This document shows positions 22,383 through 30,203 of a stretch of DNA of 42,396 nucleotides, in pieces; the stretch's first letter is position 1; every line of letters starts with the position of its first letter. The stretch is taken from the IMG/VR virus record IMGVR_UViG_2861064056_000003, one strand, 5' to 3'. The notes below the pieces were generated by a model. The model was not told the DNA's origin and made no database searches. It was given only the letters and a program-made list of their open reading frames with translations. The position numbers and the translations under genes are program-made. Source of the stretch: a virus (Duplodnaviria; Heunggongvirae; Uroviricota; Caudoviricetes).

Positions 22383-22975
22383 GATGTGTAATCCAGCAGC
22401 TGCGCGGCGGCATTTTCAGCGGCCTCCTGAGAGGCAAATGTGCGGAACAAAATATAATTCCACAGCACATCTAAAACGGCTGAATACAGTTGACCGAACT
22501 CAAGATCGTCCATCGCTGCAAACGAGATTGAACGAGGTACGCGCATCAAACTGCCGTCTGGCATCTGATGAACGTCATAAAACCCAGCTTCCATAATCGC
22601 CCATGCGCGAAACGCCTCGAACGACTTCACCGCACTGATACTCCCCGCGCGCTTTTCCGACTCATCGAGAAGATACTGATCAGCCAGCTCTGCCATGACA
22701 TCACCGTGTCCACCGTAATACGCCAGTAACTTAACGTAGCCGTGAACCAGTTCGCGCTCCGCAGGAGAAATAGCCCCTCCGGACGGATGCCAGTAATCAA
22801 AGCCCAGGTTGAGAAGTGAGAAAAATTTACGATGAAACGCGGGATTACGCGCCTGTTTGAAATCTGCATACACAACAGCACCTGGTTTGACTCGTTCAGT
22901 CAACCAGCGTTGCGTGTCTGGTGTCGCGGGTATTAGCGAACCGCCGGATACCCTGATAAATGAATGCTGCGCCAT
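22379..22975 (-). CDS. nin-region protein (DUF1367/YbcN-like)
   Basis: 198 aa directly upstream of the YbcO-like gene with overlapping start; family assignment from memory. Confidence 0.4.
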   Translation of the reverse strand: MAQHSFIRVSGGSLIPATPDTQRWLTERVKPGAVVYADFKQARNPAFHRKFFSLLNLGFDYWHPSGGAISPAERELVHGYVKLLAYYGGHGDVMAELADQYLLDESEKRAGSISAVKSFEAFRAWAIMEAGFYDVHQMPDGSLMRVPRSISFAAMDDLEFGQLYSAVLDVLWNYILFRTFASQEAAENAAAQLLDYTS

Positions 22976-23052
22976 GGTTAACTCCAGGTGGCGCGGCAGT
23001 GTTCAGAAAATGGTGCCGGGTGTTCAATCCAGCACCGATATTATACCGTGTT

Positions 23053-23232
23053 TTACGCGTCAGGGGGTGTAATAGTATATCCAGCTATTTCTGCCAACTC
23101 GAGAAACGCCATCAGGCTGGCAATCCGCTCATCATCGGTCAGAACACGCACACCAACGATGTGTCCGTCCTTACGCTTGATAACAGCCCGGCATGTTTCC
23201 GGTAGTTCGCCTATAGATTCTTGAATATTCAT
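23053..23232 (-). CDS. Small protein (59 aa) downstream of a LexA-box promoter
   Basis: ATG at 23232 preceded by a G-rich RBS; track start at 23253 is TTG and sits inside the LexA box. Confidence 0.4.
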   Translation of the reverse strand: MNIQESIGELPETCRAVIKRKDGHIVGVRVLTDDERIASLMAFLELAEIAGYTITPPDA

Positions 23233-23254
23233 GTCTTCCCCCCAATGCCACAAC

Positions 23255-23270
23255 CTGTATATTTATACAG
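23255..23270. promoter_or_regulatory. LexA (SOS) box CTGTATATTTATACAG
   Basis: Fits CTGT-N8-ACAG with AT-rich spacer; 16/20 match to the recalled consensus taCTGTatatatatACAGta. Confidence 0.6.
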
Positions 23271-23289
23271 TATTTTATGGCATTTGTCA
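23262..23289 (-). promoter_or_regulatory. Sigma70-like promoter overlapping the LexA box
   Basis: Minus strand TGACAA -35, 16-bp spacer, TATAAA -10 lying inside the LexA box. Confidence 0.45.
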
Positions 23290-23383
23290 TAACGCCAAAT
23301 ACAATGAGGGAATAATGAACAATTATATTCACGTCGTGAATTTTATTAAACGGTTTTATAGGGGATTAAACCGTTTATGGTCA

Positions 23384-24025
23384 TTATTTATCACTCCTGT
23401 AAATTGGAATTAACCATTTTCTAATCGTCGACGCTGCAGGTGGGTCAGAGTATTTCGCCACAAAAATACCGGATATGTATTGCACGCCACGCGATAATGG
23501 CGCTGTCGGGTTTTCAGTAAAAAAACGATCAGCCAGTTCAATGGCTTCGCTTTTTAATCTGTGCTGTGGTCGTCCTCCGCCCTTTGTTCCCAGGTATCGC
23601 GCCAGTTGTTTGAAACGGTAGGCGATGATTAACGGTCGCATCATCATATTGAAAAAATCGCGGGCATCGTTGTCAGCGCCTTGCGCTATCAACAGTGCAA
23701 AAAACAGATACGGGATTATGTACACTTCAGGAGATATACGAACCCGTTCACAAGTTGGTGGAGCCAACTCAATAAGTAAGTCAGCCAGCGGATTCCCCTT
23801 TTCTCCACGTTTGTAATAGCGATACAGCGGCCCGATATCAAGTTCACTCACGTCGATTTCAGGATGCCCGGCAACGACTGTACGTATCTCTTCTGCCAGA
23901 GCGTCAAATATTGCCCCGGTCCGTTCAAGATAGAGCCTCCGGGTCGAACCGCGATCATCCAACGCCCGTAACATATCTAACCGGCTAACGAAAGTTTCAG
24001 GCCAGTCCTCATAGAAGGTTTTCAT
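23384..24025 (-). CDS. Hypothetical protein (~213 aa), no recognised family
   Basis: ORF track; start taken at MKTFYEDW with a weak GAGGT RBS; divergent from 24269..24502. Confidence 0.45.
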   Translation of the reverse strand: MKTFYEDWPETFVSRLDMLRALDDRGSTRRLYLERTGAIFDALAEEIRTVVAGHPEIDVSELDIGPLYRYYKRGEKGNPLADLLIELAPPTCERVRISPEVYIIPYLFFALLIAQGADNDARDFFNMMMRPLIIAYRFKQLARYLGTKGGGRPQHRLKSEAIELADRFFTENPTAPLSRGVQYISGIFVAKYSDPPAASTIRKWLIPIYRSDK

Positions 24026-24268
24026 AATTACCTCGAATAATAAAAACTGCACTATTTGCACAATTTATTATTCGTTTTCACGCCGCTGAGTTCTATAAAA
24101 AAGAAAAAACCTCCGAGGCAGGGTTTTGTTATGGCTCGTTAAATCATCATCCAACTTTTTAGACTGAACGGTGATACTTGCAAATATTTGAAAATATGGG
24201 CTGGAACCCTATCTTATGATGTGCCTGGTAATTTATATTGTTGGGTCTTTATATCATGAGGAATCACT

Positions 24269-24502
24269 ATGGGTACGTTAGGCAACCAGCCGTGCAGAAG
24301 TCGTTATGAGTTCGATGATTTTAATTTAGCCAATCGAGCTGCGGCTCTTACTAAGTTAGCAAAAGAAACTGGTGTATCGGTGGATACCTTAATCAAACTT
24401 GAAATTGCTATGCAACTGAATCGGCTCAACTCCATCCTTATCGAAAACGGTGACAAGATGGACGAGAATCTGGCAGGTATTGGCGAGATACTGCAGAAGT
24501 GA
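24269..24502 (+). CDS. Small protein with probable helix-turn-helix
   Basis: 77 aa; RBS GAGGAA; LAKETGVSVDTLIKLE resembles an HTH; followed by a hairpin. Confidence 0.4.
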   Translation: MGTLGNQPCRSRYEFDDFNLANRAAALTKLAKETGVSVDTLIKLEIAMQLNRLNSILIENGDKMDENLAGIGEILQK

Positions 24503-24508
24503 GAGTAG

Positions 24509-24524
24509 CCCCTCTTCTGAGGGG
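24509..24524 (+). terminator. Hairpin CCCCTC-TTCT-GAGGGG after the 77-aa gene
   Basis: Perfect 6-bp stem directly 3' of the stop codon; short U-tract. Confidence 0.35.
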
Positions 24525-24801
24525 TTGCACATTTAAAATATTAAGGGCGGTCTTCTTCACGTACACAGTCACCTGGTCGAATCGTTCACGCATACTGAGT
24601 ACAAAAAATCTCAACGATAAGATCAGGTTAGACCTGTATTTTCCAGAAACATATAGACGCCTAAAAAAACACTAAACTCATGATTATCATGTATGTTTTT
24701 ACTGGAAACATTGAACCATCCACAATACAGCGTAAAAAGCAAGCAATTCACAAGATTTTAAAGTGATTTATCTGGAAGACTTTACTACTAACAGTTAATA
24801 T

Positions 24802-24846
24802 CGTACCAGAAGTGCAGAATTTGCACTTTTACAGGAATGTGGTACG
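24802..24846. promoter_or_regulatory. Nested dyad symmetry upstream of the ImmA-like gene
   Basis: Outer CGTACCA...TGGTACG and inner GTGCA-gaatt-TGCAC inverted repeats 55-100 bp upstream of the ATG at 24901. Confidence 0.4.
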
Positions 24847-24900
24847 GAACATGCTGTCTATATTTCAACCAATAATCGTAATGCAGTAACTGGAGGAGCT

Positions 24901-25389
24901 ATGGCTACCAACCCAAGAGAGCACGCCCGGCGAGTGCTGGACACGTTCTGGTGCGGGCGTGGTTTCCCTGTTGATCCAGCGAAAATTGCTCACGACATGG
25001 GATTAGATGTTTTTATTACCGATCTTCCTGGGAAAGTTTCTGGCGCACTGATTAAACAAAAAGATCAAGATCCAGCGATCTTTCTAAACAGTGATGACAA
25101 CAAAGTTCGTCAACGTTTTTCATGTGGGCATGAGTTGGGGCATTACATCGCCCGGCAAGCATCGCATAGCGATGAATATGAGTACGTTGATTTACGTGGC
25201 GAAACCGCAAGCGCCGGAACGCATCCTGATGAAATTTTTGCAAACAAGTTCGCAGCAGAACTTCTGATGCCGGTAGATGAGGTCAGAAAACTGCACGCTG
25301 ACGGTCAACCAAGTTATATAATGGCGCATTATTTTGGCGTATCTGACGATGCGATGACTTATCGTTTAAAGAACTTGAGGTTGGGGTAA
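24901..25389 (+). CDS. ImmA/IrrE-family zinc metallopeptidase (M78-type)
   Basis: RQRFSCGHELGHY signature (HEXXH after RxRF); strong RBS GGAGGAG; 162 aa. Confidence 0.7.
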   Translation: MATNPREHARRVLDTFWCGRGFPVDPAKIAHDMGLDVFITDLPGKVSGALIKQKDQDPAIFLNSDDNKVRQRFSCGHELGHYIARQASHSDEYEYVDLRGETASAGTHPDEIFANKFAAELLMPVDEVRKLHADGQPSYIMAHYFGVSDDAMTYRLKNLRLG

Positions 25390-25398
25390 CGCTTTAAA

Positions 25399-25914
25399 AT
25401 GCCATCGGATGACGATTTTAACAGCCGTTTCAAACAGGAAGTAGCACGCAGACTGAAGGATTCCCTCAACCTACACCGTCAGTTAGCAGAAGAGGTTGAG
25501 CCGGAGGACGATGAAACTCCGGTTCAGTCTCCTGACGAAGCTTCACCTCAGCCAAAGGTTTCGCACGCCCCCAAAAAAACGGCTGTCCGTATTCGCGGAA
25601 TAGCCAGAAAAAGAGCTGCCGAAGCTCGCAAAATGGCTGTAGCTGCGTCTAGCAAAAGAATTCCAACTGCTACACCCTCTCAACAAGTCACCCGTACTGA
25701 GAGTAAAATCTTGACCGAGTTCACATCTGTGAAACAGGTGAATTCACTTGATACCGAGCATGAGCGCAAACAACTCAACAACAAAGATTTTGAAGCAGAA
25801 ATCGCTCTAAAAAAACGATACGGGAAATGGTTCCTGATTATCCTTGCTTTCCAACTTCTGATAATGAATGGTGTATTTATTGCCGACGGCGCAGGTAAGC
25901 TGGAATTTGGGTGA
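25399..25914 (+). CDS. Charged protein with C-terminal TM segment, 3' end interrupted by IS1
   Basis: Start 10 nt after the ImmA-like stop; stop codon supplied by the IS1 end; frame continues in 26686..26780 once IS1 and one TSD copy are removed. Confidence 0.5.
   Translation: MPSDDDFNSRFKQEVARRLKDSLNLHRQLAEEVEPEDDETPVQSPDEASPQPKVSHAPKKTAVRIRGIARKRAAEARKMAVAASSKRIPTATPSQQVTRTESKILTEFTSVKQVNSLDTEHERKQLNNKDFEAEIALKKRYGKWFLIILAFQLLIMNGVFIADGAGKLEFG
25902..25909. repeat. Target-site duplication GGAATTTG, left copy
   Basis: Identical 8-mer immediately flanks both IS1 ends. Confidence 0.75.
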
Positions 25915-25964
25915 TGCTGCCAACTTACTGATTTAGTGTATGATGGTGTTTTTGAGGTGCTCCA

Positions 25965-26240
25965 GTGGCTTCTGTTTCTATCAGCTGTCCCTCCTGTTCA
26001 GCTACTGACGGGGTGGTGCGTAACGGCAAAAGCACCGCCGGACATCAGCGCTATCTCTGCTCTCACTGCCGTAAAACATGGCAACTGCAGTTCACTTACA
26101 CCGCTTCTCAACCCGGTACGCACCAGAAAATCATTGATATGGCCATGAATGGCGTTGGATGCCGGGCAACCGCCCGCATTATGGGCGTTGGCCTCAACAC
26201 GATTTTACGTCACTTAAAAAACTCAGGCCGCAGTCGGTAA
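25965..26240 (+). CDS. insA: IS1 InsA
   Basis: 91 aa [42 protein letters not shown]..., the IS1 InsA sequence. Confidence 0.9.
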
Positions 26241-26662
26241 CCTCGCGCATACAGCCGGGCAGTGATGTGATTGTCTGCGCTGAAATGGACGAACAGTGGG
26301 GCTACGTCGGTGCTAAATCACGTCAGCGCTGGCTGTTTTACGCGTATGACAGGATACGGAGGACGGTTGTGGCGCACGTCTTCGGTGAACGCACTCTGGC
26401 CACACTGGAGCGTCTTCTGAGCCTGCTGTCGGCCTTTGAGGTCGTGGTATGGATGACGGATGGCTGGCCGCTGTATGAATCCCGCCTGAAGGGAAAGCTG
26501 CACGTAATCAGCAAGCGTTACACTCAGCGAATTGAGCGGCATAACCTGAATCTGAGACAACATCTGGCAAGGCTGGGACGGAAGTCACTGTCGTTCTCAA
26601 AATCGGTGGAGCTGCATGACAAGGTCATCGGGCATTATCTGAACATAAAACACTATCAGTAA
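26159..26662 (+). CDS. insB: IS1 InsB (made as InsAB' by frameshift)
   Basis: 167 aa ORF with the IS1 InsB sequence (..[28 protein letters not shown]..). Confidence 0.85.
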
Positions 26663-26677
26663 GTTGGAGTCATTACC

Positions 26678-26685
26678 GGAATTTG
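26678..26685. repeat. Target-site duplication GGAATTTG, right copy
   Basis: Matches 25902..25909. Confidence 0.75.
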
Positions 26686-26708
26686 AGGATTTAACACTAC
26701 AGTTGTAC

Positions 26709-26780
26709 ATGGGCGGTACTTTGACAGAGGTATTCGGCCTCGTGCTGGTCGTGACAAAATACCTTTTTAAACGCAAGTAA
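26709..26780 (+). repeat. Copy 1 of a ~75-bp direct repeat encoding MGGTLTEVFGLVLVVTKYLFKRK
   Basis: ~92% identical to 30132..30203; here in frame with the IS1-interrupted gene 25399.. Confidence 0.6.
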
Positions 26781-27027
26781 CTCTCTCGGTCCAACAGTCT
26801 TTCGAAGGCCCTGATCAAAGGGCCTTGATAAATTAGCAGTGCGTTGAAAACAGATAGTTATTCCCATCAGTTCCAACGTAATACACATCAAAAAAATCAC
26901 CATTCTTTTGCTCTAACGTCAACACCTACCCTTAAAAAAATAATTCTCCAAGAATGAGAAAGTTATTGTGTGTATTAGATAAGATATGAGCTGACACATC
27001 TATGGCGTGGAGCCAAATTTAATATGA

Positions 27028-27059
27028 CAGTCCGCTCTGTGCCATAAGCGGACTGTCAA
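27028..27059 (-). terminator. Hairpin GACAGTCCGC-N12-GCGGACTGTC downstream of the low-GC gene
   Basis: Perfect 10-bp inverted repeat; A/T-rich on the minus-strand 3' side. Confidence 0.4.
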
Positions 27060-27242
27060 TAAACAGATTCACTTGTAAATCTTGAAGCTATACATATTTA
27101 CTTTCAATGATAAATAAAAGAACTATCCAAAAATCACTGAGAGCATATTTTAACTAACCCTCCGCTACTATTAACATAAATTTCACCCAACCATAATTAA
27201 ATTGATACATATAGCAACTTACCTTGATACGAATCATCTGGG

Positions 27243-27941
27243 TTATATTTTTCCATATTTTTTTCCGTCAAATCGAATCATGCCAGGATCAAGAAAATTA
27301 ATTAAATCGATTAACGCGTGCTGTATTCTGATTAGCCTTTCTTTATAAATTCCGATATCTCTTGTCATATTTATCACTTCATTGTTTAAATCTAAAAAAA
27401 ATGGCTCATTGATAAAGCAATTTTCCTTTGTGAAACTGCCGTAACCTATGCAATCAAATCCAGTATCTGTTGATATCAGCATCTTTTCTGCAATAGCTCT
27501 CTGCTCTCCTATGAAAAACATAAAATACTGACCAAAGACGTCTGTTTGGATTAATGAGTTAATATTGTTCTGTAATCTAATAAACTCCCTCATTTTTTTA
27601 TTTTTTTCTAGGCTAAGGTATTGAATGTCTATGCGGGCAGCTTCTGTCCATGCAAAAAACTGGGAAAAAAGAAAAACAGTATTGTTGATAACATAATCTT
27701 GTTGGCGCTTATTCCCATTATGATAAAACTCTTCAATGAACCCCAATTCTAATATATTATAAATACGGCTTTGTAAGTCTGAAGCTGAGCGAATTAACGG
27801 TTCAATATAGTACTGATGTTTTCTCCTTACATCCAGTGATTCATTGAGCTTGTTTATTCTATTCTGATTATAAGTAGATATAGCAATAGAGATTATAGCT
27901 ATTGCACCACTAATAAAGCTTGAAATTAATGCCGTACCCAT
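27243..27941 (-). CDS. Hypothetical membrane-anchored protein (232 aa), low GC, no recognised family
   Basis: N-terminal hydrophobic segment (ALISSFISGAIAIISIAI); RBS AAGGA; AT-rich codon usage unlike the rest of the prophage. Confidence 0.55.
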   Translation of the reverse strand: MGTALISSFISGAIAIISIAISTYNQNRINKLNESLDVRRKHQYYIEPLIRSASDLQSRIYNILELGFIEEFYHNGNKRQQDYVINNTVFLFSQFFAWTEAARIDIQYLSLEKNKKMREFIRLQNNINSLIQTDVFGQYFMFFIGEQRAIAEKMLISTDTGFDCIGYGSFTKENCFINEPFFLDLNNEVINMTRDIGIYKERLIRIQHALIDLINFLDPGMIRFDGKKYGKI

Positions 27942-28504
27942 CTAAAAGTCCTTTGATTCTTGCTTGGTTAACAAAATGACATAATTTTATTTAATGCCAT
28001 AACAACTTAACAATATATCATAATATGATTATTATGGTGTAGCTTGTCGCATCTACGCTCCATTACAAACAGATGTAAGATATAACCTATATGTTTTAGC
28101 CAGCAAATTCGAAAGCATTCAAAGTAGTCTCATCGAACTCTCGAAACCCTATGTCTTCGGGTATAAAATATTTAAATCCATTTGCATAATATCGACTCAT
28201 GTTTATTATATTCTCCCCATTCACCATTAAGATTTGACATTATTTTCAACAATCGGTTATTGCAAGATTGAAATATATTTTTACTTGACACAATATTCCA
28301 TGTAGCCCAGCGATTCGACTTACCCCCAACTATACGGACAATCTAAATTAAATCGATGATTTTTTGATACATTCTCCTCTCTCCATTACTTTATGTTTTT
28401 GTTCCCCAAAAATACCTTGCTCTCTAAAAAATAATTGTTCTTTAAGTTCAAAATCGAGATCTACATGAGCGTTAGATACAAAGCTAATATGTTGAAATGT
28501 CTTT

Positions 28505-28513
28505 CCCCCCCCC
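28505..28513. repeat. C9 homopolymer (G9 on the minus strand) in AT-rich ORF-free DNA
   Basis: Read directly; on the minus strand the tract follows an ATG opening a 55-codon ORF (28348..28515). Confidence 0.8.
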
Positions 28514-29129
28514 ATAACGGCATTGTTATCTAAACTATGTTACACAAATATAATATTACCCTTTCAACGTAATCCAAGAATAAGATTAATGCCATTATAT
28601 ATATCATAAATATGATATTTTGTATATTTTTATCATTTAGCCTTGATTGTACTAGGTGTACTCTCAACGAAGTAGGGAAAGTCTGTTCCTCGCTCACAGC
28701 TGCCCTTCAGTAAGCGAAAAAATGCCTACTCGGTGCCATATACAGCCATTGTTATTAACAGCAGGGAATAATTCAAAACTGAAATTAAATATCTACCTTT
28801 TACAGTAGAAATAGTTCCTCCAGGACACTATCCATTGCCGGGCACAATCACTCGGGGTATAACGATATAAAATATGTTCATGATAGTGCAGGTTCGTATA
28901 TTAAGTTCAGCAGCGAAAACATGCCTTACAGGTTTCCGGTTTTGGGAGCGTCGTTACAGGATCCTGCGCATACCGTTCCCATCTGTTGAATTAAAGGTTT
29001 CACAGCCTTTGCCGATATCACCTTTTACCTTACCTGTGATGCGTTCAGTGCTCAGCGTTGTTTACTGTAGCTCTCGGGACTGATTACAGACCGCGTCTTA
29101 AAAACCAATCCTTACTCTAAAGGGAATTC

Positions 29130-30053
29130 ATGAGATTAAAATACTCAGTACTCTTACTCGCCATTGCCCTTACAGGCTGTGATAACAAAAAAGATGAGAT
29201 CGGTTGTTCTTCGGAAATAACCCAGTCAGCTCTCATGGATTTATTAAAAAAATCTGCTTATGAAGGACTCTCTGAACAGGTCGATAAATACCCTGATGTC
29301 ACTAATCAGACCAAACGAAGCACACTGGACAAGATCAAACTAGCCATCTCTGAGATCTCCACAACATCAAGTGACACGGGCAGCACAATGAAAACTTGTG
29401 AAGGGACCGTGACGATGACTCTATCTGCGAACGAGTACGTCCAGCTTTCAGATGCTTACAGAAAGAATTTTAATCGTAATCTCGATAAGCAAATGGAAAG
29501 CCTGTTTTTGGAGAACAACGCAAACGCCTTTTCAAAACGTATCACCTACACCGTGCAGGCGACCGACGATCAGAAAAACGTTTTTGTAAAAACCTCTACT
29601 GATAATCCGATATCAGTGGGCGCCGCTTTACTGACATCGCTTTCCATTATCACCCCGATCGTTGAGCAGCAGAAAATCCAGCAGGCTAAGGATGCCCAAC
29701 AGAGTCAAATTGAAGCGGAACAACAGGTGCAACTCAGGGCGCAAGAACAGGCTAAGTATGAGGCGGAGAAGCAAATAGAGAGACAGGCACAACTTCAGCC
29801 GCAAAAAGCTGACAACCTTGATCAGTCCCGAATGGCATTTGCGAATGCCGACTCTGATTTGAGTACCGTCTGGAGCAAGTTAACCCCGGCGAAGAAAAAA
29901 GATTTGCTGCCTTCTCAGCGTCAGTGGATCAAAACTAAGGATGCTATGTGCGGTAAAGTTTCAATGCAGGGAACAGATGCTGAAGTCAAGAAAATGGTCG
30001 ACTGCCAGACGCAAATGACCCTTTCAAGAATCGCTTTCCTCAGAAACCAATAA
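29130..30053 (+). CDS. Lipoprotein with C-terminal DUF1311-like domain (LprI-type lysozyme inhibitor family)
   Basis: Lipobox LTGC after a signal peptide; Q-rich coiled region; C-terminal ..W.KL....K..L...Q..WIK..D..C.. pattern; RBS AAGGGA. Confidence 0.6.
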   Translation: MRLKYSVLLLAIALTGCDNKKDEIGCSSEITQSALMDLLKKSAYEGLSEQVDKYPDVTNQTKRSTLDKIKLAISEISTTSSDTGSTMKTCEGTVTMTLSANEYVQLSDAYRKNFNRNLDKQMESLFLENNANAFSKRITYTVQATDDQKNVFVKTSTDNPISVGAALLTSLSIITPIVEQQKIQQAKDAQQSQIEAEQQVQLRAQEQAKYEAEKQIERQAQLQPQKADNLDQSRMAFANADSDLSTVWSKLTPAKKKDLLPSQRQWIKTKDAMCGKVSMQGTDAEVKKMVDCQTQMTLSRIAFLRNQ

Positions 30054-30101: not shown

Positions 30102-30131
30102 AGTCATCAAGTGCATATGTAACTGTTTTAT

Positions 30132-30203
30132 ATGGGCGGTACTTTGACAGAGGTATTCGGTCTCGTGCTGGTCGTGGTCAAATACCTTTTTAAGCGCAAA
30201 TAG
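30132..30203 (+). repeat. Copy 2 of the ~75-bp direct repeat; free-standing 23-codon ORF MGGTLTEVFGLVLVVVKYLFKRK
   Basis: ~92% identical to 26709..26780; no upstream RBS. Confidence 0.6.

Follow-up and report, generated by a model that had tools for sequence, protein, structure and literature searches.

Introduction

The closest described system is the insertion sequence IS1. It is known as an element of 768 bp with left and right terminal inverted repeats (IRL and IRR), the overlapping genes insA and insB and an A6C frameshift motif (PMC12428005). Its transposase InsAB' is a protein of 232 aa with zinc-finger, HTH and DDE motifs and is produced by frameshifting (PMC12428005). A weak IS1 promoter, PIS1, overlaps IRL (PMC12428005). 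The target site duplications of IS1 are typically 8 or 9 bp long (PMC12065110), and an involvement of H-NS in IS1 transposition is cited (PMC12428005, PMC3000339).

Among 5,426 complete E. coli genomes, 4,970 contain IS1 copies that match the one studied here, and most of the matches have 95-99% identity. Copies are also described in prophages and phages, e.g. phage P1 and SfIV. The copy studied here resembles these in its location in non-essential DNA of a temperate-phage genome and differs from them in isoform (~95% identity), host phage and insertion site. It is the only IS1 in the window, which is the whole stretch of 42,396 nucleotides that was analysed. An earlier note on this DNA had described it as an intact and recent IS1 insertion that removes the 3' end of a prophage gene. 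We are highly confident that a recent IS1 transposition into codon 171 of a 201-aa prophage accessory gene explains the locus as a whole. It is an ordinary, well-understood IS1 event, and the allele is already in public databases.

Boundaries of the IS1 element and target-site duplication

The element, its ends and its immediate flanks are located as follows.

25910..26677, + strand: IS1 element, 768 bp (boundary script and sequence comparison)
25910..25932, + strand: IRL, left terminal inverted repeat of 23 bp, matching IRR at 18/23 positions
26655..26677, - strand: IRR, right terminal inverted repeat of 23 bp (boundary script)
25902..25909, no strand: left copy of the 8-bp target-site duplication, GGAATTTG (a single copy in the empty allele)
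26678..26685, no strand: right copy of the 8-bp target-site duplication, GGAATTTG (read from the window sequence)
25917..25944, + strand: predicted promoter-like site CTGCCA-16-TATGAT, overlapping IRL (consensus scan)

The first bases of the element are GGTGATGCTGCCAACTTACTGAT and its last bases are ATCAGTAAGTTGGAGTCATTACC. A comparison of GGTGATGCTGCCAACTTACTGAT with GGTAATGACTCCAACTTACTGAT, the reverse complement of the right end, shows matches at 18 of the 23 positions. The two ends are imperfect terminal inverted repeats, and this pair is the classical IRL and IRR of IS1. The window contains the IRL 23-mer a single time, and shuffled sequences give an expectation of 0. The predicted CTGCCA-16-TATGAT site coincides in position with PIS1, the weak promoter of IS1. 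The interval 25902-26685, given by the earlier note, comprises the IS1 together with both duplication copies.

The identical octamer GGAATTTG adjoins both IS1 ends and is exactly 8 bp long, as claimed before. A match of 8 bp at fixed positions is expected by chance with a probability of ~1.5e-5. A duplication of 9 bp is ruled out, since the repeat is not extendable on either side. The empty allele carries one copy only, and the occupied allele is longer by 776 bp, which is the sum of 768 and 8. A duplication of 8 bp is normal for IS1; it differs from the 9 bp found in three other IS1 insertions examined in the same region.

Coding capacity and family membership

Three features account for the coding capacity of the element.

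25965..26240, + strand: insA, 91 aa, GTG start, with zinc ribbon and HTH; repressor and N-terminal part of the transposase (Pfam; protein identical to K-12 InsA)
26159..26662, + strand: insB' frame, 167 aa, with the DDE catalytic domain (PF03400, DDE_Tnp_IS1, 1.3e-74)
26216..26222, + strand: A6C slippery motif for the programmed -1 frameshift to InsAB', within TTAAAAAAC

Both frames are intact, as the earlier note had stated. The insA product matches Zn_ribbon_InsA (PF03811, 1.3e-21) and HTH_Tnp_IS1 (PF12759, 4.7e-31) in Pfam. The match of insB' to PF03400 spans the whole profile from 1 to 131, and the insB' translation contains AEMDEQW, MTDGW and RIERHN. In the insA frame TTAAAAAAC is found at 26214-26222, and a -1 shift at A6C gives a fused InsAB' frame that is open for 232 aa. 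Scored against NF033558, the IS1 transposase equivalog of NCBIfam with a cut-off of 100 bits, this fused frame reaches 246 bits. The length, the ends, insA, insB', the A6C motif, the 8-bp duplication and the isoform identity given below all agree with membership in IS1. Judged from its sequence, this IS1 copy looks functional, with all sequence requirements for transposition intact, and it is probably still active.

By ISfinder convention, a copy counts as an IS1 isoform from ~95% nucleotide identity with the prototype upwards. The present copy has 95.44% identity to K-12 IS1A over 768 bp, colinear and without gaps, which makes it an isoform close to the border of this definition. With the IS1A/IS1R prototype of E. 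coli K-12 it shares the length of 768 bp, the 23-bp imperfect inverted repeats, the A6C motif, a 232-aa InsAB' and an identical InsA, whereas 35 nucleotides (95.4% identity) and 10 amino acids of InsB' are different from K-12 IS1A. The identity to the IS1 copies of BL21 is 96.5%. The closest copies reside on plasmids of Enterobacterales, including Klebsiella quasipneumoniae pKAM645_3, Pantoea PSNIH1, Citrobacter freundii and others. They are 99.6% identical, with identical InsA and InsB' proteins and 3 differences, which are substitutions at IS positions 55, 127 and 244. These are the best matches in the collections searched, where an exact donor copy was not found. The InsB' allele corresponds to the generic 'IS1 family transposase' of RefSeq (WP_223429336.1 frame).

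The interrupted gene

The insertion divides one gene into two parts.

25399..25914, + strand: truncated gene, 170 native codons followed by Gly and TGA from the IS1 end, 171 aa (= WP_249942734.1)
26685..26780, + strand: orphaned 3' end, 31 codons and stop, coding for the second hydrophobic segment, which is conserved (in the empty allele directly joined to the 5' part)

The truncated ORF ends with ...KLEFG and a stop. Both the GGG and the TGA codon are completed by IS1 bases, so the stop does come from the IS1 terminus, as proposed earlier. When IS1 and one duplication copy are deleted, an uninterrupted ORF of 201 aa is restored. The intact gene is a 606-nt CDS for a hypothetical protein (WP_001138663.1), which belongs to phrog_5346 (function unknown). 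Searches of the interrupted gene against Pfam, NCBIfam and PADLOC gave no match, and the only assignment is the 'unknown function' of phrog_5346. Two hydrophobic stretches are present in the full protein, at residues 144-162 and ~175-193, and the second one is lost. The displaced codons at 26685-26780 encode EDLTLQLYMGGTLTEVFGLVLVVTKYLFKRK. The earlier note put the loss at ~32 codons; the loss of 3' codons is correct and the number is 31.

All full-length relatives that were examined, among them a diverged variant from E. fergusonii, keep the C-terminus, and alleles with 91-98% DNA identity (H85, H86) run on through the natural stop. A natural gene end at this point in relatives would have spoken against an interruption; the full-length relatives continue for 31 more codons. 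The insertion exchanges the last 31 codons for a Gly-stop, and its effect is local. The next gene (27243-27941) is convergent, so that no polarity on downstream genes of the same strand is expected. The truncated protein is probably non-functional.

In the proposed mechanism, an IS1 isoform would have transposed into codon 171 of the phrog_5346 gene, within an AT-rich island of an E. coli prophage that has an integrase. The InsAB' transposase, made by the -1 frameshift at A6C, would cut GGAATTTG with an 8-bp stagger, and the IS ends would be joined there. Gap repair would then double the 8 bp. The gene product thereby loses its last 31 residues with the conserved hydrophobic segment and gains the Gly-stop.

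Prophage context and neighbouring genes

The window corresponds to approximately one complete prophage, located between the glyW-cysT-leuZ tRNA cluster and yecA according to the RefSeq annotation of the identical region in E. coli NQ3. Its gene content includes an integrase, a replicative helicase, a Q antiterminator, holins, lysis genes, lambda-like head genes and a contractile tail. The prophage is carried by ~440 of the 5,426 complete E. coli genomes. The interrupted gene lies in an accessory island, with the Q/nin region on one side and the replication genes on the other. The GC content of this island is 38.6% (24100-29100, IS excluded) compared with 48.2% for the window. One further gene stands directly upstream.

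24901..25389, + strand: ImmA/IrrE (M78) metallopeptidase gene, upstream of the interrupted gene, co-oriented and 9 bp from it (domain search and annotation)

This stand-alone ImmA/IrrE M78 peptidase has CapP as its best PADLOC match (2.4e-25). An HTH repressor gene was not recognised adjoining it. Together with the phrog_5346 protein and its two C-terminal hydrophobic segments, it constitutes an uncharacterised two-gene prophage module at 24901-25914 (plus 26685-26780).

On the - strand, the gene at 27243-27941 encodes a hypothetical protein of 232 aa (phrog_5606) with a weak PADLOC match to RTasTM (DRT-associated, 1.8e-5). From this sequence match it may be defence-related, and it belongs to the same accessory island. 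A relic of 78 bp, 89.7% identical to the 3' end of the interrupted gene (30130-30199 versus 26699-26776), is found directly after an LprI-family gene and encodes YMGGTLTEVFGLVLVVVKYLFKRK followed by a stop. This direct repeat brackets a cassette formed by the 232-aa ORF (27243-27941) and the LprI gene (29130-30053), which suggests a past insertion or exchange of the cassette.

Further IS1 insertions in the accessory island

In two other public read sets, DRR386353 and DRR389556, IS1 occupies exactly the position described above, but in the opposite orientation. In both, IS1 follows base 25909 with the same left junction and is IRR-first, so that the flank continues into GGTAATGACTCC. Since GGT(G/A)A stands at the start of both IS1 ends, the 171-aa product is the same in either orientation. 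Inversion in situ as the source of the opposite-orientation junction is rejected on mechanistic grounds. Replicative transposition and homologous recombination between IS copies keep the old flank on its own IS end, and the two orientations therefore represent independent insertions at the same bond. Independent events would be expected to leave GGAATTTGAGG next to an end of the IRL type (reverse complement GCAGCATCACC), or else a duplication that is shifted. A look-up of the 38-aa ORF across the right junction returned no record.

In DRR389556 the segment 22422-25909 forms a 3.5-kb contig with IRR ends at both sides. This places a second IS1 junction at 22421/22422, inside a DUF1367 gene. The junction is either a second insertion or the result of an IS1-mediated inversion of 22422-25909; in the case of an inversion, this segment would lie in reversed orientation between two IS1 copies that are inverted relative to each other.

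Three further independent IS1 insertions of different isoforms are found in the neighbourhood, two of them within 1 kb. An IS1A with a 9-bp duplication is inserted at 26819-26827 in strains S9, R10 and R13, and a 97.5%-identical IS1 with a 9-bp duplication at 26862-26870 in AVS0193. Both lie less than 200 bp downstream of the interrupted gene. The third, in Z0117EC0036, is an IS1A with a 9-bp duplication in a variant version of the island. The AT-rich accessory island thus looks like a regional IS1 hot spot that is nucleotide-precise at one bond. The IHF consensus WATCAANNNNTTR, with at most 1 mismatch, does not occur within 150 bp on either side of the target, and an IHF site as the explanation of the hot spot is not supported. 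The likeliest cause is that the AT-rich and probably H-NS-bound island favours IS1 targeting. A broader reading takes the bond after 25909 as a precise IS1 hot spot with at least two independent hits in opposite orientations, in an island that holds at least 4-5 insertions, four of them within ~1 kb, and allows that truncation of phrog_5346 could be selected. We regard this reading, in its entirety, as unlikely.

Recency of the insertion and alternative explanations

A comparison with related prophages lacking IS1 at this site, suggested by the earlier note, was made by restoring the uninterrupted site (IS1 and one duplication copy removed) and searching with 600 bp of sequence that span it. 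The empty site is present in ~410 complete E. coli genomes; the rows sampled from these matches had 99.8-100% identity. The sequence of the site in E. coli NQ3 is CTGGAATTTGAGG, which contains GGAATTTG once. After subtraction of the 776 bp, the remaining 41,620 bp of the window show neither a mismatch nor a gap against NQ3, and the IS1 insertion is the sole difference across the whole prophage. At the protein level, the truncated product WP_249942734.1 is found in RefSeq on 8 contigs, one of 4.99 Mb, and the intact protein WP_001138663.1 on at least 1,000 contigs. Scans for the exact occupied junction, and for a degenerate form of it that covers both IS1 orientations, found nothing in genome_contigs, metagenome_contigs and viral_contigs, collections that lack the strain. 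The insertion is very recent and confined to a small clone, as shown by the 0 differences from the IS-free allele and the rarity of the occupied allele. The recency claimed in the earlier note is therefore upheld on other grounds than the perfect duplication from which it was argued, which alone tells little about age.

An old insertion, ancestral to the prophage lineage, would require that the IS-free alleles arose by precise excision. A perfect duplication and intact ORFs alone give no date, which leaves room for such an age. This explanation is nevertheless effectively refuted, and we assign it next to no probability: the occupied and empty alleles are free of differences over their shared length, the empty allele outnumbers the occupied one by far in genomes and contigs (~410 and at least 1,000 against 8 contigs), and the 3' end is uninterrupted in the diverged alleles and in the E. 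fergusonii homologue. Precise excision of IS1 is also very rare. It is very improbable, too, that the IS1 is an artefact, whether by mis-assembly at a repeat or by a hop into the DNA while it was cloned or propagated in E. coli in the laboratory. Contamination of cloned DNA with IS1 is a classic problem, and the occupied junction is present in 0 of the 5,426 complete RefSeq E. coli genomes, both of which would fit an artefact. However, the independent read-set assembly of SRR6985737 contains the same IRL-first junction, with k-mers spanning flank and IRL, and its 10.5 kb of upstream sequence match without a mismatch. With the truncated RefSeq product on 8 contigs, including the 4.99 Mb one, this makes the insertion a natural clonal polymorphism and not a cloning or assembly artefact. 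An identity of only 95.4% to K-12 IS1A and 96.5% to the BL21 copies does not fit a laboratory-strain copy, and the clean 8-bp duplication speaks against mis-assembly.

The recurrence at the exact codon could also reflect selection for inactivation of the phrog_5346 membrane protein, for example if it is costly or toxic, instead of neutral targeting of a hot spot. The same phosphodiester bond was hit twice independently and in opposite orientations, both insertions lead to the identical product of 171 aa, and no part of the protein is more conserved than the segment that is lost; these points agree with selection. On the other hand, the insertions of S9/R10/R13 (26819-26827) and AVS0193 (26862-26870) are outside the gene and leave it intact, which points to regional AT-rich targeting. 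Selection for loss should scatter the hits along the gene and not strike one bond twice. In addition, the gene is intact, with 100% conserved sequence, in ~410 of the ~440 prophage carriers. We therefore consider selection quite unlikely and retain a recent IS1 transposition into codon 171 as the explanation of this locus.

Implications

The 171-aa ORF should be annotated as an IS1-disrupted pseudogene of the 201-aa prophage gene, and the IS1 is useful as a marker of the small clonal lineage in which it is found. If the truncation were selected, the module of ImmA/IrrE and phrog_5346 would be costly or conditionally toxic. The recurrent hits provide a small natural data point on the target preference of IS1 in AT-rich, horizontally acquired DNA.
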